Assembly: GCA_951406725.2 (NCBI GenBank)
Contig: OX597819.1
Span: forward strand, 57,350,001-57,414,000
Length of the DNA: 64,000 nucleotides
Source of the DNA: Octopus vulgaris
Lineage: Eukaryota
Direction of reading: 5' to 3'
In this document: positions 20,351-61,674 of the stretch, piece by piece
How the letters are laid out: each line of letters starts with the position of its first letter
Position numbering within the stretch: position 1 is the first letter of the stretch
Program-made: the position numbers and the translations under genes
Notes under the pieces: model-generated
Seen by the model: the letters and a program-made list of their open reading frames with translations, nothing else
Databases searched by the model: none
What the model was told of the DNA's origin: nothing

Positions 20351-23129
20351 GCACAACAGCTTCCACAAGGACATGTGTTACATCAAAAATTCTTGGTTGG
20401 GGATGCAAATCCTCTCATTCGCGTACGACATAATGCGGCAGCAGCATAGAATTGAAGCGTCCATCTCTTTTTTCTCTCAATGTAGAATGAGGAAAATTGG
20501 ATGTTGAGGTAATGTAAATAAATAAATACATATATAGGCGTGAAGATGGAGGGGCGAGAATTCGGGACGAGGGATAAAAGATGTATAAAAGTGTAAGTAT
20601 AGAAAAATATAAAAATGTAGAGCATAAAGATATAAAGAGTTGTAAGGAGATGTAAAGGGGGTATAAAGAATATAAAGAAATATAAAGAAATATAAATAAA
20701 TGTAAAGGCATAAGGTTATAAAGTAAAAATAGAAATAGAAATAAAAGTAAAAAAACATGATAAAAACATGATAAAAATGTAAAAGAACGTAAAGATAAGG
20801 GATGTATAGAGGTTACGGACCAAGCATGGTGGTCAGGAGATTGATAAGATTTAGTTGTAGAATTGTCAGTAAATCAACAGTTTCGTCTGGGGACCTAATG
20901 TGTTGTAAATCAGAGCTGATGAGCATTTAATCTGGTTCCTTGAATTAAATGGACTTCTAGTACATACATATCATCATGGATACATACACCCATATACACG
21001 CGTACATATACGCCTCCAAGCCTATAAGCATACACACGCACTCGCGTGTAAACATGTACATAAACACACACGCACCCACACGCACGCGCGTACACATACA
21101 TACATACAACAGAATATCCGCATATATACACGGACACTATACGCGTACACACTCACATGTACATACGCGCGCCCATCCCTACATACACACACGTATATGC
21201 CCACGCCTCTAGGTCTAGATATAAGATATTAAAGGATGTATATAAGAACGTATGTAAAAAATCACGTACTCATGTCTATACGTGCACGCACACACGGCTG
21301 TGTGTCCGTATGTGCGTGCACATATACACTTATATACACACGCAGAGACACACGTGCATATGGGTATAGCTATAAGATATCGAAATATGTATGTACATAT
21401 ATGCGCATGCATATGTATGTATGCGTATACACACGTACGCGGACGCTCGTATAGTCAAAAAGTGGATCCATAGGTAAGTAAATAAACATATATAGAGGTG
21501 TAAAGCGATAAGTTAGGGGTAAGAATGAGGGTAAGGGTAAAAATTAGAAATAAAAAATACAGTATAAAATAAGAAATACAATGTAATATTTAGAAATGAA
21601 ATATAAGAATTATAAAAATTATAAGAGTTAAGGTAAGGGATGAAAATAAAAATGAGAATAAATGGAAGTAGAATAAAAGTAAAAATAAAAATAAATGGAA
21701 GTAGGATAAAAGTAAAAATAAAAGTAAAAATAAAAATAAAATAAAATAAGATAAAAATATAATTTGGTAAAGTTTAACCCTACTTCCATTTATTTTTATT
21801 TTTACCTTTATTCTACTTCCATTTATTCTCATTTTTATTTTCATCCCTTACCTTAACTCTTATAATTTTTATAATTCTTATATTTCATTTCTAAATATTA
21901 CATTATATTTCTTATTTTATACTGTATTTTTATTTCTAATTTTTACCCTTACCCTCATTCTTACCCCTAACTTATCGCTTTACACCTCTATATATGTTTA
22001 TTTACTTACCTATGGATCCACTTTTTGACTATACGAGCGTCCGCGTACGTGTGTATACGCATACATACATATGCACGCGCATATATGTACATACATATTT
22101 CGATATCTTATAGCTATACCCATATGCACGTGTGTCTCTGCGTGTGTATATAAGTGTATATGTGCACGCACATACGGACACACAGCCGTGTGTGCGTGCA
22201 CGTATAGACATGAGTACGTGATTTTTTACATACGTTCTTATATACATCGTTTAATATCTTATATCTAGACCTAGAGGCGTGGGCATATACGTGTGTGTAT
22301 GTAGGGATGGGCGCGCGTATGTACATGTGAGTGTGTACATATATGTCCGTGTATACATGCGGATATTCTGTTGTATGTATGTATGTGTACGCGCGTGCGT
22401 GTGGGTGCGTGTGTGTTTATGTACATGTTTACACGCGAGTGCGTGTGTATGCTTATAGGCTTGGACGTATATATACGCGTGTATATGGGTGTATGTATCC
22501 ATGATGATATGTATGTACTAGAAGTCCATTTAATTCAAGGAACCAGATTAAATGCTCATCAGCTCTGATTTACAACACATTAGGTCCCCCAGACGAAACT
22601 GTTGATTTACTGACAATTCTACAACTAAATCTTATCAATCTCCTGACCACCATATTTGGTCCGTAACCTCTATACATCCCTTATCTTTACGTTCTTTTAC
22701 ATTTTTATCATGTTTTTATCATGTTTTTTTACTTTTATTTCTATTTCTATTTTTACTTTATAACCTTATGCCTTTACATTTATTTATATTTCTTTATATT
22801 TCTTTATATTCTTTATACCCCCTTTACATCTCCTTACAACTCTTTATATCTTTATGCTCTACATTTTTATATTTTTCTATACTTACACTTTTATACATTT
22901 TTTTATCCCTCGTCCCGAATTCTCGCCCCTCCAACTTCACGCCTATATATGTATTTATTTATTTACATTACCTCAACATCCAATTTTCCTCATTCTACAT
23001 TAAGAGAAGAAAGAGATGGACGCTTCAATTCTATGCTGCTGCCGCATTATGTCGTGCACGAATGAGAGGATTTGCATCCCCAACCAAGAATTTTTGATGT
23101 AACACATGTCCTTGTGGAAGCTGTTGTGC

Positions 23130-37667: not shown

Positions 37668-39841
37668 CACTGGTTTACAAAGATTTCTTTTTTTCTTTGC
37701 TCTGAGGCAAGGATGTGAACAGGTGTTTTTTTTTTACTAATTTTGATGTGGGGGATTCACGTTTCTGAACAGTTTTGTTCTATCACTTCCAGCTTTTTGC
37801 TTTCACACATCTCATTTTAATTATACTGCATATAAATTCAAAATACAATGTGTTTATTTCATCTGATACAAAGGCATATTACGAAAAAAGAACAAAATAG
37901 ATACAGAGCATTGATGGAACTAAATTACTTGGATAATAGAATACGCACAAATCAAAGTGAGTTTTTTGGACGATCTTGTGTACTTTGCCTCCGGAATATC
38001 ACGCAAGAACATCCAGCAAAATTCCCCATCATACTGGGGCTCCACTTGCCTTGGTAGTTACTCTCAATCTTAGTAATATCTTGGTGGATCCTTTCTCCAT
38101 GCTCATCACTCAATGCTCCGAGCTTCGGAGGGAAGAAATTGGGGTGGGATTGAAGAAAGTGAATTTTGAGGGACATTCGGCATCTCATATCCTCATAAGA
38201 CTGGAACAACTTCTAGATACACTCTTGGTAATCTAGTACCCGTGTCTTACCAAGGAAGCCATGGCAGACTGACTTCAATGCTTCTCATGCTCTCAGTCCT
38301 TTTATGGTAAGAAGATTCTCAGCGTGTTTATCCTTCAACACTTCTGCAATCTGAAGCCCGACGAAGATGCCCTCTTTGAAATTATCAGAACTCAGAGCTG
38401 GGAACATAGTGCAGAAGTGTTGGAAGTCAGCACCATCTTTGTCCATGGTCTTCACGAAGTTCTTCATTAAACCAAGCTGGATATGAAGAGGAGGAAGAAG
38501 TACGTTGTTCATGTCAACCAAAAGATTTTCTTGGACATTGTGTTCACCAGGCAAGAAAGTGCGCTTAGATCCCCAGTTCATCTGCTTGTAGTGTTTGGGC
38601 CCATCCCTGCTGTCCCAGAGACAGAGAAAGCAACAGTACTTTGTGAAGCCAGCTTGCATACCCATAAGGAGCCCAATGACATTGAGGTTCCTGTATTGAC
38701 TCCACTGGTATTGGTTGTATTTGACGGCTTCCAAAAGGAGCTCCATATTGTTAGATGGCTCCTTCAGATGAACTGAGTAGACCGAGATTGTTGGGATATT
38801 TATTCCAATTGTACAAGAGCACAGCCTTCAGAACTCGCTTGGAAGAGTCTATGAAAAGACGCTAATCTGAGGAATTGTGTGGGAAACCAAGGAAGGCTAA
38901 CAAGCCAGAAACATTAGTGCAGTAGCACAACCTGTTTACCATGTCGAAGAATGAGCACATTCCAGGTTCATTGTCCTGAAACTGGTGATCCTTACATGTG
39001 CTTTGACCAGGTTCCACTGCTTAAGCCGGGATGCCAGGTGCTCTGACTGTTGCTTAGATAAATACAAACCACGAGCAAGGTCATTGAGGTCTTCCTGCAT
39101 GATCCAGTGGGGCTCTTTGACACTTGTTCCTAAATAAACAGAGACATTGCCTTCAGAAGAGATCATCGTGGCAGAATCTTATTCTGAGAGCATTTCTTTA
39201 TCCTTATTTGATGGGGTGTAAGAACAGGGAGATCATCTGTGTGAGGAACAGGTCTCATAGCTGAGGGAAGTTTTGGATATTTGACCTTTTATCTAGAAGA
39301 AGCATTGAAACCGGATATATTTGTTAGACAATAAAGCAATCATCTACATGGCTTCCTGGTTCACTCGGGACAGCAAAATTTAAGGCTGCTTTCTTGCTGT
39401 TAAACCATGCTGTTTATCCATTGTAGCAGGGTTTTCAACAGATGTGTGATGCCCAGGATGTGTCCTGATCTCCAATTTTACAATCAAAATATCGAAAGTA
39501 AGCAGTTCTCAGGAGGGAAATAATTGTTCGGCGCTGTGCAACTTTCGTAAAATCCCCACACACACACAAAAATAAATTTGCCTTGTATATACATCCTCGG
39601 TGTTTTGACGTGCCTGAAGCCCTTGAAGAGATATATTTCATATGTATCACACAAATCTGGCAAACAAAATAAACGTTGATCATATATATGGTTACGGAGA
39701 TTATCGCAAAATCATAATAATATATATCACAAAAAAGTAGAGGTGATGAGTGAAAACTGGTTTCGTATCTGATATCAGCACCCTATAATAAGGCTACAAC
39801 AACACTTTTTACGTTTGCTTCAATTTCTCTCTAAACCTGTG
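37668..39841 (-). mobile_element. Full-length, inactivated Chapaev3-like (CMC) DNA transposon
   Basis: Motifs KIGDQDTSWASHIC, LNDLARGLYLSKQQSEHLASRLKQWNL, GFTKYCCFLCLWDSR, LPPLHIQLGLMKNFVK, SLKIHFLQSH..SDEHGERIHQDI..YQGKW. Termini CACTGGTTTA / TAAACCTGTG with a 3-bp TAA duplication on both sides. Confidence 0.88.
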
Positions 39842-44857: not shown

Positions 44858-44894
<37 letters not shown>

Positions 44895-45089
44895 AACTAT
44901 GGGGGTTTAGTTCACAGGTGATCTAAACGATTAGGTACGCTAGGTGAGTGCTGTAACGGATTACAGGGGCGGCTCTAAGACGATAGTTATGGAGCCTTTA
45001 CAGAATTCCGATGCAGCGGAAACATCTAAAGTCATAGATAATATTACTATAGGAAGGAATTCAAAATCGTACAGGTGTTTCTGGGATAT

Positions 45090-45695
45090 AACCATGCTAC
45101 GAAGTGATAATAACCATGCTACGATTCTATATGCTATTATGGCCATTCCTTATATATTTGAACGTATATTATATAGTCTATTGACTATCTTTTCTGTCTC
45201 ACTTGACCGCTGGTAGCGGAATAGTTTTCTAGAGTTTTTTGCTACCCTAAAATTTAATAATTAATGATTTTTTCGCTAATTTTGAAATTAAATCGGCAGT
45301 TTATATTTGCTGCTGAGAAAACCGCGCGAGTGTGGTGGATTTTGAAAAGTTATAGCATATAGACTCGTCGCATGGTTATTATCACTTCGTGACGATATGG
45401 TAGTCCTTGGTTTTCTGCTGAAGAGGCACGCCAGTTGTAAATAAATTAAATATATTTACTAAAGATTGCTGAAACTATGCATTGTCCAGAAAGGAGAGGG
45501 TGAACGTTTTTATTTCTCTATTAGTGGTTTGGAGTTTAACTGCTCTTTCTAGTGAGTCGAATGTCCTATTATGGCCATTCCTTATATATTTGAATGTATA
45601 TTATATAGTCTATTGACTATCTATTCCTTCTAACTTGACCGCTGGTAGCGGAGAATTTTTCTAGAATTTTTGCTACCCTAAAATTTATTAATTAA
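45090..45695 (+). mobile_element. Retrozyme-like element: about 1.3 tandem units (period 432 bp) with a short inverted 5' segment, ending in (TA)n
   Basis: 45135-45265 is repeated at 45567-45695. 45099-45138 is the reverse complement of about 45352-45390. Homologous to the 58-kb monomer. Confidence 0.8.
45412..45492 (+). ncRNA. Type I hammerhead ribozyme
   Basis: Stem I TTTCTG/CAGAAA, CTGAAGA 45418-45424, stem II GGCA/TGCT with inner GTAAATA/TATTTAC, GAAA 45471-45474, stem III ACTATGCATTGT, GTC site (cleavage after 45486). Confidence 0.85.
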
Positions 45696-45753
45696 TATAT
45701 ATATATATATGTATATATATATGTATACATGCATATATATATATGTATATATG

Positions 45754-45827
<74 letters not shown>

Positions 45828-45835
45828 CATACATT

Positions 45836-45895
<60 letters not shown>

Positions 45896-46961: not shown

Positions 46962-48629
46962 GGCCTATTGCGCACTGTGAAAGCATTCAGCGATGACATC
47001 GGGATGGAGTTTGGGCTTGAGAAGTGTGCCAAGGCCACTTTCCAGAAAGGGAAAGGGAAGACCACAAATTCAGTCGTGTTAGATGTTGGCACAATCATAA
47101 GAGAGATTGAGCAAGAACAAACATACTAATATTTAGGGATAAATGAAGGCTCTGGTATTCAGCATGCAAGCATGAAAGAGAAGATCAGGAAGGAATGTTA
47201 TAGGAGAGTTCGTGCAGTCCTGAAATCTGAACTAAATGCACGTAACAAGGTGTTAGCTATAAATTCCTTAGCAGTTCCAGTTGTTATTTATAGCTACAAT
47301 GTGTTGAACTGGAATATGAGTGAAGTAAAGAATATATACAGGAAAATACGCAAGCTGCTGAGTTGTAATCGGATGCACCACACAAAGGCAGACGTAGATC
47401 GCCTTTACCTTCCTAGAGCCCAAGGAGGTCGAGGCCTGATCCAATTTGATCTAGCTTACAAAACAACCACAATTGGACTGGCCAAATATCTTGAAATAAC
47501 GAATCACTGGATGCTAAAGCTCGTGGAAAATCACGAGAGACGAAAAAAGCTTCATTCTATCATAAAGGAAAGCAAAACACTTGCTATTGATCTCGTACAG
47601 GATACCCAAACTGAACAACCCGGCAACTATTGTTGCAAAGAAGGTGAAAATAATGGCAACGAAAAAAGCGCACGAGCAATTGGCTGATAGGTGGGAGGAG
47701 AAACCTCTGCACGGCAAATATGTGGCCCGTAGCAAACAAGCTGATGTTGACCAGAAGCAAACCCATCAGTGGCTACGGAGCTCAGGGCTAAAAGCAGAGA
47801 GCGAAGGTTTCATCCTGGCTGCTCAAGATCAAAGCCTATTAACCCGGAACTACCAGGCCAATGTAATGAAAAATGGAGCAGACCCAAAATCCCGATTCTG
47901 CAATGACATGATTGAAACAGTGGACCACCTAATCTCTGGATGTAAAGTCTTAGCACCAGTGGAGTATAAATTAAGACATGACAGAGTTGGCCAATATCTA
48001 CACTGGCTAATAAGTCGGCATTACAATATCAAAACTGCCGACAAGTGGTATAATCACCACCCTGAAGCTGTAACTGAAGGAGAAAATGTAACGATTCTGT
48101 GGGACTTTCCAGTACATACAGACCGAACCATCAAAGCCAATAAACCAGATATTGTTGTGAAAGACAAAAACAATAAAGTTTGCTTATTGATCGACATGAG
48201 CATCCCCTGTGATCATAATATCTCAGCGAAAGAGTTTGACAAGCTCAGAAAATATAAAGACCTGCTCATTGAAATTGAGTAAATGTGGCATCTCAAGGCG
48301 GTTACAATACCAGTGATCGTAGGAGCACTAGGAATGATCAAGAAGGGAACCGAAAATTATATGAGAATGATCCCTGGCTTACCATCCCTGCAAGAAGTGC
48401 AAAAGATTGTCTTAACTGGTACATCACACGTATTGAGAAGAGCATTGTCGCTGTGAGAGCTGTTACTGCCCATGTATTTTAATTTAACGCTAAAAAAAAT
48501 TTAAAAAATGAACGAACTATTGAGTTTGGTTTAATGGCCTACCAATGTATACTATGAGTTACTTTGCCCTAGGAGTCGGGAAGACGCTCGGCAAGAAATG
48601 GAAGCAAATTTGAAAAAGAAGAAAAAAAA
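46961..48629 (+). mobile_element. 5'-truncated Dong/R4-clade LINE (RT end, CCHC knuckle, restriction-like endonuclease) in (TAA)n
   Basis: FSDDIGMEFGLEKCA, Y*YLG, RLYLPRAQGGRGL, RFC..ETVDHLISGC..RHD, LWDFPVHTDRTIKANKPDIV..D, VGALG..VQKIVLTGTSHVLRRALS. (TAA)n on both flanks. Contains stops and a frameshift. Confidence 0.92.
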
Positions 48630-56559: not shown

Positions 56560-57698
56560 GTAAGTACGCCAATATACTTAAAACTTTAATGTTTTTCGCC
56601 ATTTTATATTTCTATAAATTTGGCGCATGCGCTTTGTCTGTTTTCGATTTTGTCAACTACACTGTACGGTAGAGTCAGCTGTACACTATTTAATAAAAAC
56701 AGCCACATGATGCAATTCACACTGCCAAAAATTTGGAAAGGACATAAATTGCTAGGTATTCGCGCGAGAAGGTCCATCACGAACATTTGAGTGTTTGGGT
56801 GTCAATCTGAGGACAGTGCAATCTCAGGACATGTACCGATTTGTGATAAAAATTAAACATCCAGTCAACATCGTGGCCTTTGGATTGATCACAAATGATG
56901 GCAAAGTTATGCCTCCATTTATCTTCTCACACGGCCTCGGACACAACACGGAGGTCTACATCAAGTGCCTGCAGGAAGTAGTGCTGCCATGGGTCAAGAG
57001 GGCAACTGCTGGAACACTTTATGTCTGGGAACGAGACTCTGCACCATTCCTCACAAACACGAGAACCCAGTCATGGCTATCAGACAATTTCTACGCCGAA
57101 ATCACCCCTAACATCTGGCCTAACACCCCAGACTCCAATCACTTTGATTATTACATATGGGGTGCAGTTGAGCGAGAGACCAACAGCATTCATTGTAACA
57201 ACAAAGAAGAACTGAAGGCAAGAATTATCGCAGCATTCACCAACATAATCAAGGAGAAACAATCCAGAAGAGTTGCAGGAGATTCCGAAGTCACCTGGAA
57301 TCCGTGGTTGAAGGCAATGACGATTTTATTGAGTAAATTTAGTCCTTAGTATTTCTAGATAATTTTATGTAATTTTGGTAAACTTCAGTCAGAAATAACC
57401 AGGCGTTGCAATGGGCGTAATAATTGATGAATACATCGAGTGTTACTCTGGAGATGCAAAAGATATAATGGAGATGAGAATGATAATGTGAAGTTGGTTG
57501 GAGCTACTTTTAAGTGACGAAACAGAATAGTGAAGTCTGTAAACGATTCAAGATATTTGGCCTCTACACGTTCCGTATCGATATGGATGATGAGTGGATA
57601 GCCATGGGCATAAAAAATAAGTTGCCAAATAAGTTGTCAGTGTTATTTTCTTTTTTGTGTGTGTAATTTAAACGACAGTTCATTCATCTCACTCTGTG
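56560..57698 (+). mobile_element. Internally deleted DD37D (maT)-like Tc1/mariner transposon
   Basis: ORF 56795-57349 KHPVNIVAFG...MPPFIF...WERDSAP...WPNTPDSNHFDYYIWG. The D-to-D spacing is 36, consistent with DD37D lacking one P of WPPN. The 3' end is interrupted by a 232-bp insert. Confidence 0.8.
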
Positions 57699-57756: not shown

Positions 57757-57813
<57 letters not shown>

Positions 57814-58034
57814 TCAATATAGGGTGGCAAAAAAAATTTTGTAGAATTTTTTTGCCACCAGCGGCCTAGTGGGAAAAAATTAAATAGTCATAGACCATTT
57901 ATAAGTTCAACATCACAATCAAGGAACGGCCATAATAGGCCATTCACCCACTAGAAATAACAGCCAAAGCTTTAACCGCAAAATAACATTAATTCCGTAA
58001 ACAAGGAGAAAATTAAAAAAACATTTACCCTGTA

Positions 58035-58141
58035 ATTTCTTATACGATGCACCGTTTCATCTACTATTTAATGGTAAACTAACCTGATTAAATTAAATCA
58101 AGCCAATCTTCCATAGACCCTTAGATTCCTCAGTAAGAAAT
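58035..58141 (-). ncRNA. Type I hammerhead ribozyme
   Basis: Reverse complement of 58656-58762 with two substitutions inside stem II. Confidence 0.87.
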
Positions 58142-58655
58142 AGCCAGAACGGAACGGATATTTTCACGAGGCATTTCCGTCCCTGCCTCGGCAATATCTG
58201 ACCTAAAATTTTCAAATCATCGCACTCGCGCCAAATTTATCGGCAGCAAATAAATATAAGCCGCCGATTCCATTACGGAATCAACCAGAAAATTCATAAT
58301 TAATCAATATAGGGTGGCAATGTTATTTTGCGGTTAAAGCTTTGGCTGTTATTTCTAGTGGGTGAATGGCCTATTATGGCCGTTCCTTGATTGTGATGTT
58401 GAACTTATAAATGGTCTATGACTATTTAATTTTTCCCACTAGGCCGCTGGCGGCAAAAAATTCTACAAAATTTTTTTTGCCACCCTATATTGATTAATTA
58501 TGAATTTTCTGGTTGATTCCGTAATGGAATCGGCGGCTTATATTTATTTGCTGCCGATAAATTTGGCGCGAGTGCGATGATTTGAAAATTTTAGGTCAGA
58601 TATTGCCGAGGCAGGGACGGAAATGCCTCGTGAAAATATCTGTTCCGTTCTGGCT

Positions 58656-58762
58656 ATTTCTTACTGAGGAATCTAAGGGCCTATGGAAGATTGGCTTGAT
58701 TTAATTTAATCAGGTTAGTTTACCATTAAACAGTAGATGAAACGGTGCATCGTATAAGAAAT
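58656..58762 (+). ncRNA. Type I hammerhead ribozyme with long stem II
   Basis: Stem I ATTTCTTA/TAAGAAAT (8 bp), CTGAGGA 58664-58670, stem II ATCTA/TAGAT, GAAA 58739-58742, stem III ACGGTGCATCGT, GTA site (cleavage after 58754). Confidence 0.9.
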
Positions 58763-59142
58763 TACAGGGTAAATGTTTTTTTAATTTTCTCCTGGTTTAC
58801 GGAATTAATGTTATTTTGCGGTTAAAGCTTTGGCTGTTATTTCTAGTGGGTGAATGGCCTATTATGGCCGTTCCTTGATTGTGATGTTGAACTTATAAAT
58901 GGTCTATGACTATTTAATTTTTTCCCACTAGGCCGCTGGTGGCAAAAAAATTCTACAAAATTTTTGCCACCCTATATTGATTAATTATGAATTTTCTGGT
59001 TGATTCCGTAATGGAATCGGCGGCTTATATTTATTTGCTGCCGATAAATTTGGCGCGAGTGCGATGATTTGAAAATTTTAGGTCAGATATTGCCGAGGCA
59101 GGGACGGAAATGCCTCGTGAAAATATCTGTTCCGTTCTGTCT

Positions 59143-59249
59143 ATTTCTTACTGAGGAATCTAAGGGCCTATGGAAGATTGGCTTGATTTAATTTAATCAG
59201 GTTAGTTTACCATTAAACAGTAGATGAAACGGTGCATCGTATAAGAAAT
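59143..59249 (+). ncRNA. Type I hammerhead ribozyme (second tandem copy)
   Basis: Same as 58656-58762. Cleavage after 59241, 487 nt downstream of the first site. Confidence 0.9.
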
Positions 59250-59367
59250 TACAGGGTAAATGTTTTTTTAATTTTCTCCTGGTTTACGGAATTAATGTTA
59301 TTTTGCGGTTAAAGCTTTGGCTGTTATTTCTAGTGGGTGAATGGCCTATTATGGCCGTTCCTTGATT

Positions 59368-59418
<51 letters not shown>

Positions 59419-59422
<4 letters not shown>

Positions 59423-60017
59423 CTAATGTAGGATAACATTTCTTTTTCGGGAAAAAATTTTTTATCAATGGCCAGCATATTAAAAAATACCTTTAAAGTT
59501 TTAATTTATAAATAATTTACAAAATAAGTGCAAAAGAAAAATTCCAATGCCAAATATACCGAAAAAAAGACAAAAATTGTCAATAACCATTATAATTTAT
59601 GCGTCTCGAAACAAACCGATAGAAATTTCTAAAAAAATCATTTATTACCGTATTGGTCCCAATTTCGGGGTTAATTCATAAGAATTTTCCCCTCTTCAGC
59701 GATAAAAACGTGAGATATAAGTGAAATACTTACTCATACCCATGGAAAAAGCAAGTACTAAGTCACGAGCAGACCTAAGTACCCCAAATATATCCAAAAT
59801 AGAAAATCTTCGACACATCTCGAGACACGTGTGATTCGAACTAGAAACTTTCACACAGTGAGAGAATCCGGAAGTGAACACTATTAAGTTTATAACTAAT
59901 GTATGATCAAAAATTTTTTCGGGAAAAATTTTTTATCAATGGCCAGCATATCAAAAAATACCTTTAAAGGTTAAATTTATAAATAATTTACAAAATAAGG
60001 GCAAGAGAAAAATTCCA
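59419..60017 (-). mobile_element. Retrozyme/pLTR-like element: about 1.27 units, period 473 bp, (TA)n on both flanks
   Basis: 59419-59546 is repeated at 59892-60017, with an HHR in between. Confidence 0.85.
59645..59705 (-). ncRNA. Type I hammerhead ribozyme
   Basis: Minus TTATCG-CTGAAGA-GGGG aa AATTC ttat GAATT aa CCCC-GAAA-TTGGGACCAA-TA-CGGTAA, running into AATAAA. Confidence 0.88.
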
Positions 60018-60077
60018 TATATATACATATACATATACATACATACATATATATATACCTTCATCTTCGTGGAGATT

Positions 60078-60610: not shown

Positions 60611-61674
60611 TGCCCTACCATATGTAGGGGACGCAAGTATGTTTATGGCGCGTCAAAAGCTCTTCAAAATCATTTTCTGAAATTCAGCGTTAATTTGCTG
60701 ATATTCGACAAAGTAGTAAGCTTAACGTAGCGAGAGCTTCAATGGCTATTGATTGTTGTTCGCTGAGAGAATGATTTGACTTCAGTCAGAAATAACCAGG
60801 CGTTGCAATGGGCGTAATAATTGATGAATACATCGAGTGTTACTCTGGAGATGCAAAAGATATAATGGAGATGAGAATGATAATGTGGAGTTGGTTGAAG
60901 CTACTTTTAAGTGACGAAACAGAATAGTGAAGTCTGTAAACGATTCAAGATATTTGGCCTCTACACGTTCCGTATCGATATGGATGATGAGTGGATAGCC
61001 ATGGGCATAAGAAAAAACACTAGAAAGATTAACATAAAAGAAGGTGTGAATAAAATCGGTTTCCTCTAAATATATTATTCGATAAACTGCTGGAGGTTTG
61101 AGGTAGCAGTAAAGATAGTAAGCGTATCTTGTGATGGTAAAGCCTTGAGCTTCTTTAAGGGTGTAAAGGTAATGTTTGTAAGTGTGAATGATATTGAGCG
61201 TGTGTGAGATGAGTGAGAGATATATAGAGAGGGATAATTATTAGGGGTAAGGAGTTCTACATAAGTGCTGGCATGTTTGAGAAAAAAATCGTTGTAAAAT
61301 TATTCAGTGTAGATTTGGAATGGATAGACAGAGGATTCATAGATGGAGATAGAAAATAGGTATAACAATTCTTTGCTAAAATACTTACTAGAATTTTAAG
61401 TATCTCTTCCCCAAAATAAAAACTAGATTTATAACAAAAAAATTGTGATTAACATAAGAAATATATATTGTTGTGATAAATAATTGTTTCTAATTTAGAC
61501 ATTAAACCTGATAATTAGGACAAAGTTTTAATTAAAGAAATTAGTATTTGACCACTAGGAGGAGTAAAATCCCTCGGTTGGATTTCAGCTTGAGTTCGTA
61601 CAGAGTCCGAACGAACACAGTCATTTTGATCGACTGAGTTCAGTTAATTCACTACCATAATTCTTTCGTTCTAT

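Follow-up and report, generated by a model that had tools for sequence, protein, structure and literature searches.

A clade of non-coding hammerhead ribozyme repeats with Penelope-like insertion anatomy in the octopus genome

Satellite 2 of newts and salamanders is built of tandem type I hammerhead monomers, whose palindromic stem III permits a dimeric fold. Non-LTR retrozymes have been described as tandem type I hammerhead monomers that are expressed as circular RNA in coral, mussel and axolotl, with Penelope-like elements (PLEs) proposed as their helpers, the model in which the circular RNA serves as template being likewise proposed rather than demonstrated (PMC7229834). In vertebrates, the retrozymes have been tied to the pLTRs of PLEs, as non-autonomous pLTRs (Li, Clavereau & Pollet 2026, bioRxiv 10.64898/2026.07.22.740005). 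Hammerheads and dimeric folds with a palindromic stem III are reported for PLEs as well (PMC4209133), and PLE insertions are described as partial tandems with an inverted arm, a tail and a bias for TA (Craig et al. 2021, bioRxiv 10.1101/2021.04.23.441226). For the anole PLE, reverse transcription in vitro starts at two internal sites, both DNA strands are cut, and the ribozyme is dispensable for insertion (Frangieh et al. 2024, PMC11167929). In cephalopods, a paper on a squid genome reports 235 type I hammerheads as a bare count. The role of the hammerhead in PLEs and animal retrozymes is an open question in the field.

The unit at 45 kb of the window (the whole 64,000-nt stretch of Octopus vulgaris DNA that was analysed) is a decayed member of a multi-family non-coding hammerhead repeat, referred to below as the clade. 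Like satellite 2, the clade has tandem type I hammerhead monomers with a palindromic stem III, but it occurs mostly as short dispersed two-armed insertions, not as long arrays, and its stem III is longer. Metazoan non-LTR retrozymes (Cervera & de la Pena 2020, PMC7229834; Li et al.) share with it the AT-rich, non-coding monomer that carries a single type I hammerhead, the occurrence of copies both in tandem and dispersed, the multiplicity of families and the co-occurrence with PLEs. The clade monomer of 450-490 bp lies just above the 150-450 bp given in PMC7229834 and inside the 51-972 bp of Li et al. The clade differs from the retrozymes of these descriptions in its 5-bp palindromic stem III and the long extension of stem II, and it is without a homologous PLE pLTR in the loci examined; ribozyme cleavage and circular RNA are here predicted only. 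With EN+ PLEs (Craig et al. 2021; Frangieh et al. 2024) it shares the partial tandems, the inverted 5'-truncated arm, the tail on one end, the TA-microsatellite target and the hammerhead in the repeat, while it lacks an ORF and has a tail of ~85-105 nt versus 30-40. No reads end at the ribozyme cut in the reported experiments on the anole PLE (PMC11167929), whereas the genomic 5' ends of the clade cluster behind the cut in two families.

In our literature search, the clade and this truncation footprint were found nowhere described, and the two-end, two-arm anatomy was likewise absent from the available descriptions of metazoan retrozymes; supplementary retrozyme lists could include these families. 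The clade is new and most likely PLE-mobilised, its class, the non-LTR retrozymes, being already known. With thousands of copies and families with both intact and damaged cores, it bears on the role of the hammerhead, and the truncation pattern together with the two-armed anatomy allows genome sequence to be used to test whether the template is cleaved linear RNA, circular RNA or RNA left uncleaved.

Table 1. Positions of the clade features and of the adjoining repeat in the window
Feature	Position	Strand	Remark
Family X 3' piece, unrelated hammerhead-bearing repeat	44891..45087	-	ends at (TA)n 44859-44890
Inverted piece of A unit, 39 bp	45099..45137	-	matches 45352-45390
Family A arm, 1.3 units	45134..45696	+	reaches the long fixed 3' end
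Hairpin H1 in A	45293-45316	+	pairing conserved, without significant covariation
Hairpin H2 in A	45366-45389	+	pairing conserved, without significant covariation
Type I hammerhead in A unit	45411..45493	+	predicted cut after 45486
A hammerhead stem I	45412-17/45487-92		
A hammerhead core CTGAAGA	45418-24		GAAA at 45471
A hammerhead stem II	45425-28/45467-70		G-U at 10.1-11.1 in window copy
A hammerhead stem III	45474-85		palindromic
Hairpin H3 in A	45524..45543	+	G-U rich, changes one-sided only
Hairpin H4 in A	45559..45580	+	directly before short 3' end; strongest covarying pair 45560/45579
Accessory hairpin in A	45644..45677	+	lies in the tail of ~85-105 nt that separates the two 3' ends; also present at 45212-45246
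(TA)n target at long 3' end of A	45695..45890	not assigned	
Family B insertion	57806..59372	both arms	(TA)n on either side
Family B minus arm, long end	57806-58320	-	predicted cut after 58043
Family B plus arm, 2.2 units, short end	58319-59372	+	predicted cuts after 58754 and 59241; head-to-head with minus arm

The units at 45 kb (family A) and 58 kb (family B) are colinear homologues with a type I hammerhead in each (Table 1). Their local identity by blastn is 69-73% (E 1e-14 to 1e-16), and the global alignment has 321 identities in 498 columns and a score of 73, while 300 dinucleotide shuffles scored -247 ± 20 with a maximum of -182. The homology proposed in the first-pass annotation, which hinged on the two monomers aligning beyond chance, is therefore borne out, and all the motifs that it quoted occur in both units in the same order. 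The stems that it listed for A, and a type I hammerhead with a predicted cut at the GUC site, are present as well. A structural scan of the whole window yields five type I hammerheads, of which A holds one and B three, the fifth belonging to an unrelated repeat (at 59651); the Rfam scan of the window gave nothing at the gathering threshold.

The search was extended to the host genome (2.8 Gb in 227 contigs, AT-rich), in which a motif common to A and B has 4188 matches and its reversed control none. Further families were found with patterns that exclude the stem III of A and B. They gave family C, with ACAATGCATTGT, at 292 matches (control 1), and family D, with ACGTTGCAACGT, at 127 (control 0); the C pattern fixed one partner base to G/T, so that this pair is biased, whereas the D pattern left the partner bases free. 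Family E is represented by one locus and family F is more distant. The families, A-F, are related and number at least six, and their copies run to thousands, which supports the earlier suggestion of a diversified family. Its monomers are short and tandem, without LTR or ORF, the RT + GIY-YIG ORF that defines an autonomous PLE being absent from the units. Many units occur in B and D and at most 1.3 in A, and some young families form tandem runs of up to ~9 units. Each monomer contains a type I hammerhead with a conserved core and covarying stems I-III, the motif having been found on a single strand of the unit. Every motif counted in family D shows an A-A mismatch at 10.1-11.1, and family F has U in place of C3 in 8 of 9 rows.

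Arms were mapped in motif-ascertained insertions of families A, B and D, which were worked through as listed apart from a few that were skipped. Of the 199 arms, 190 end at either of two positions, ~128-146 (short) or ~227-243 nt (long) past the cut, and 179 are directly followed by (TA)n. The two 3' ends are hence fixed, ~85-105 nt apart, while the 5' ends are ragged. Among 74 head-to-head insertions, 67 combine a long with a short end and seven have one atypical end, long+long and short+short combinations being absent. The units of one insertion are closely similar: the SNPs number 2.7 within an arm, 4.4 between arms and 19.3 between loci in family B, and 0.56, 0.88 and 4.58, respectively, in family D. 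At one locus, 17 private variants occur in all five units of both arms. The anatomy expected of a PLE-mobilised element is seen here, with two fixed 3' ends (tail), 5' truncation, an inverted arm and a TA target. In this respect the clade copies are PLE-like, carry the signs of DNA insertion through reverse transcription of the Penelope type, and agree with the two internal start sites and the cutting of both strands reported in vitro for the anole PLE.

The window copy of family A has departed from its relatives, to which it is 82-89% identical. The 432-bp period first reported for it is private to this copy and caused by a 21-bp deletion, the relatives having ~453-465 bp. The stem pairs quoted for it exist in the copy, but stems II and III each carry one change from the family form: at the base of stem II, G-U replaces G-C (TTGCC in the family versus the quoted GGCA/TGCT), and stem III, ACTATGCATTGT, has one mismatch relative to the perfect palindrome ACTATGCATAGT. 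As for a layout equal to that at 58 kb, the (TA)n end holds, but the copy has 1.3 units with one ribozyme, and the left piece is a 39-bp stump and not a complete second arm. The stump comes from mid-unit, abuts the family X piece, and is probably what is left of a second arm since lost by deletion. Li et al. regard an element as active if it has two or more complete ribozymes in a row, as the 58-kb copy has and the window A copy has not, a distinction that judges the copy and not the family.

We also considered that the left 200 bp (family X) and the A arm form one chimeric insertion. This was rejected; X is unrelated to A and lacks a PLE ORF within 1.5 kb in 29 other loci, and both pieces apparently finish at long ends, a pairing found in 0 of the 74 two-arm insertions. 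Family X itself is an abundant, non-coding, hammerhead-bearing repeat that ends in (TA)n and has inverted arms in some copies.

With a probability that we put at roughly 0.85, the non-coding, hammerhead-bearing unit, 450-490 bp long and with its 3' ends fixed at (TA)n, is a non-autonomous PLE (non-LTR retrozyme) copied in trans by a PLE reverse transcriptase-endonuclease. The enzyme would cut both strands of a TA repeat, and reverse transcription would start internally at two sites flanking the tail, as it does in vitro for the anole PLE. Two cDNAs joined at their truncated ends would give the head-to-head arms, and circular or uncleaved multimeric RNA the multi-unit arms, while some templates may be linear RNA opened at the hammerhead cut, on which the reverse transcriptase would stop just downstream of the cut. 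Selection would act on master copies only, the window copy being a decaying product. The tail of ~85-105 nt exceeds the 30-40 bp that PLEs are reported to have, which counts against this explanation.

The unit had originally been viewed as an RNA replicon. If this means RNA-to-RNA copying, as by a viroid-like RNA whose genomic copies are by-products, the view is not supported, the copies carrying the marks of DNA insertion and the class being already described as non-LTR retrozymes. The hammerhead in each monomer, the multi-unit arrays with near-identical units and the long tandem runs of some young families are what such a replicon would produce, but the ribozyme motif is found on one strand of the unit only, the fixed DNA insertion ends and TA targeting account for the spread, and the young family D as well as family F have spread regardless of their altered cores. 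We consider RNA-to-RNA multiplication very unlikely.

In favour of the PLE explanation, young intact RT + GIY-YIG elements are present in the genome, with ORFs of 781 and 775 aa. When the 781-aa ORF and 574 aa of the other were scanned, GIY-YIG scored above the Pfam cut-off and RVT_1 slightly below it. The 775-aa family (L373-L402, e.g., G000:C2:139231919-139233637) is very young, with at least 76 matches identical over 573 aa; it inserts in (TA)n, has two 3' ends 32 bp apart, and carries a Cys motif before GIY-YIG. The 781-aa family (L121-L126) is young and has an upstream ORF of up to 479 aa. Neither family shows pLTR homology to the clade, and in the PLE loci examined the clade profile matches only separately inserted clade pieces. 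That no autonomous PLE with a homologous pLTR occurs among these loci counts against the PLE explanation.

The copies might instead be pLTR fragments of an autonomous PLE still in the genome and not independent non-autonomous families. PLE insertions are usually 5'-truncated to the pLTR (bioRxiv 10.64898/2026.07.22.740005), and the loci examined are a small part of 6136 GIY-YIG candidates. However, head-to-tail arrays show the unit closing on itself, its ribozymes being separated by no ORF, and a PLE ORF was seen to run into a unit in none of the 349 overlapping loci that match the clade, the nearest PLE piece lying 181 bp from an arm. We regard this origin as very unlikely. Candidate associations were also discarded individually: two hammerheads 3.5 kb apart (L213) enclose no PLE ORF, and the PLE pieces near arms in L136, L156 and L376 are separate insertions. 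At L261, a PLE piece is a nearby hit.

Covariation was assessed with an approximation of R-scape that applies a weighted G-test with APC and takes its nulls from simulation on the tree. The first set was reduced from 636 profile hits to 423 covering at least 300 model positions, to 66 after clustering at 96%, and to 64 rows on removal of two without the ribozyme. The helices of the proposed-pair test were defined on unit B, a member of the tested set, which favours them. Among all column pairs of set 1, none reaches E<0.05 (best 0.17-0.44), four of the top five being predicted pairs. Among the proposed pairs, 6 of 71 are significant at E<0.05 whichever of the two nulls is used. Stem I holds three of them, and stem II, stem III and H4 hold one each, so that the compensatory change suggested for stems I, II and III is supported in each. 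The 50 pairs of eight core helices underwent 27 same-branch double changes, compared to 5.2-5.5 expected (maximum 16 in 2000 draws). In the same set, pairing was kept in 59 and broken in 17 changes on internal branches, versus 40 and 72 at the tips (p 1e-8); pair-keeping changes prevail on inherited branches, and single copies lose the pairing. Stem substitutions on internal branches are not depleted (p 0.18), and in the balance of G-U against A-C, internal branches differ from tips at p 0.06, both for set 1; these two values count against the PLE explanation.

Set 2 includes family F (75 rows). Here one of all pairs is significant, located in H4 with an E of 0.025, the floor of the null; zero or one pair at E<0.05 in the all-pairs tests of the two sets likewise counts against the PLE explanation. 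Of the proposed pairs, 5 of 50 are significant, and per helix, stems I-III, H4 and the accessory hairpin exceed the null, while H1, H2 and H3 do not. The accessory hairpin is conserved and changes mainly through G-U intermediates. It has no same-branch double change in the 64 rows of set 1 and four after the divergent family F is added, and this signal may reflect one long branch; of the covariation claimed for it, the conserved pairing and the excess over the null with F stand, and compensatory change within set 1 does not. The extended stem II and a small tail hairpin have no significant pair. In a simpler count over 22 rows, 93.6% of cells are paired and 18 of 53 pairs show two-sided change, which exceeds all 500 shuffles, relatedness being left out of account in this control. 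From the alignment of 64 rows, which is gappy, RNAalifold recovers the ribozyme and H3 only. The covariation is real in the ribozyme and H4; since significance is confined to these, the proposal of selection on the whole monomer is overstated, H1-H3 giving no support and the accessory hairpin little.

The same data bear on whether the repeat is satellite or minisatellite DNA amplified by unequal crossing-over, its hairpins being kept by DNA-level palindrome correction and not by selection on RNA. Tandem units are homogeneous within arrays, the stem III palindrome could be perfected by DNA template switching, and the G-U bias reaches p 0.06 only. Stems I and II, however, pair across 45-90 nt around the hammerhead core and covary on the same branches, H3 is made of G-U pairs valid on one strand only, and private variants are common to both inverted arms. 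The anatomy largely refutes this origin, as the copies are thousands of short insertions with fixed 3' ends dispersed over many chromosomes; we consider it extremely improbable, and the original statement that the repeat is not satellite DNA holds.

Under the PLE explanation, the ragged 5' ends may carry information on the template. In family B, 15 of 48 arms begin 1-35 nt past the cut (4.4 expected, p 2e-5). The 35-nt bin was picked after seeing B, so that A serves as replicate, with 21 of 64 arms (9.1 expected, p 1e-4), and D as contrast, with 4 of 57 (5.2 expected). Compared to both flanking bins, p is 0.0002 (B), 0.001 (A) and 0.68 (D), and with one arm per insertion the counts become 8.5, 17.5 and 3.5, respectively. 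Both arms are truncated within the bin in 5 of 18 loci of B, 2 of 11 of A and 0 of 17 of D. The footprint ends are scattered and not at position 1. Part of the pattern could come from the reverse transcriptase stalling at structure or microhomology within the T-rich stretch, but D has that context as well. Within family B, no link between core quality and array length was resolved.

A and B insertions are preferentially truncated behind the cut, in B often on both arms, and the damaged-core families D and F still spread and keep compensated stems. Taken together, it is conceivable, on a tentative reading of the genomic sequence to which we give somewhat less than even odds, that the truncations in A and B, where 10.1-11.1 is paired, record ribozyme activity in vivo, that cleaved linear as well as circular or multimeric RNA are PLE templates, and that in D and F the hammerhead fold may serve recognition or packaging apart from catalysis. 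The footprint of cleavage, absent in core-damaged D, is the part that is new here and worth pursuing; if the reading is true, the clade is a natural allelic series for what PLE hammerheads do.

Directly behind the ribozyme lies a stretch of 74-78 nt of the form GG|GT(A/G)AA...TTTCTAG (58769-58846, homologous in A, C and D), which resembles a small intron and has the length of the Penelope pLTR intron. An intron was rejected here, family D being without the AG and no splice joint being seen in contigs. Assembled contigs of sequencing runs guessed to be RNA (not on record as such) cover the units but reveal neither ends nor strand, and neither a circle nor a splice joint. Across four such runs, among them X1 on 58319-59372, A>G is the most frequent difference, one low-depth contig carrying several; this might reflect editing of the inverted arms, or just the presence of other copies.

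Several other features lie in the window. The unrelated hammerhead repeat at 59421-60020 (-) has ~1.27 units with a period of ~474 and a predicted cut at 59651, abuts (TA)n at the end of the B insertion, and has copies at 88-94% in L168, L122 and L240. The region of the B insertion is flanked by a 239-bp direct repeat of 98% identity (57381-57620 and 60779-61017). Between (AAT)n repeats, 46962-48282 (+) holds the broken 3' part of a non-LTR retrotransposon, with ORFs at 47130-47687 and 47566-48282 and no Pfam hit, which from its motifs we take to be of the restriction-like-endonuclease type. The fragments at 56756-57349 (+) and 38285-38827 (-) resemble DNA-transposon transposases in their motifs, Pfam giving nothing at 1e-3 for them. 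Finally, 20415-20873 and 22606-23097 form a near-identical inverted pair of ~450 bp with 2 kb between them.
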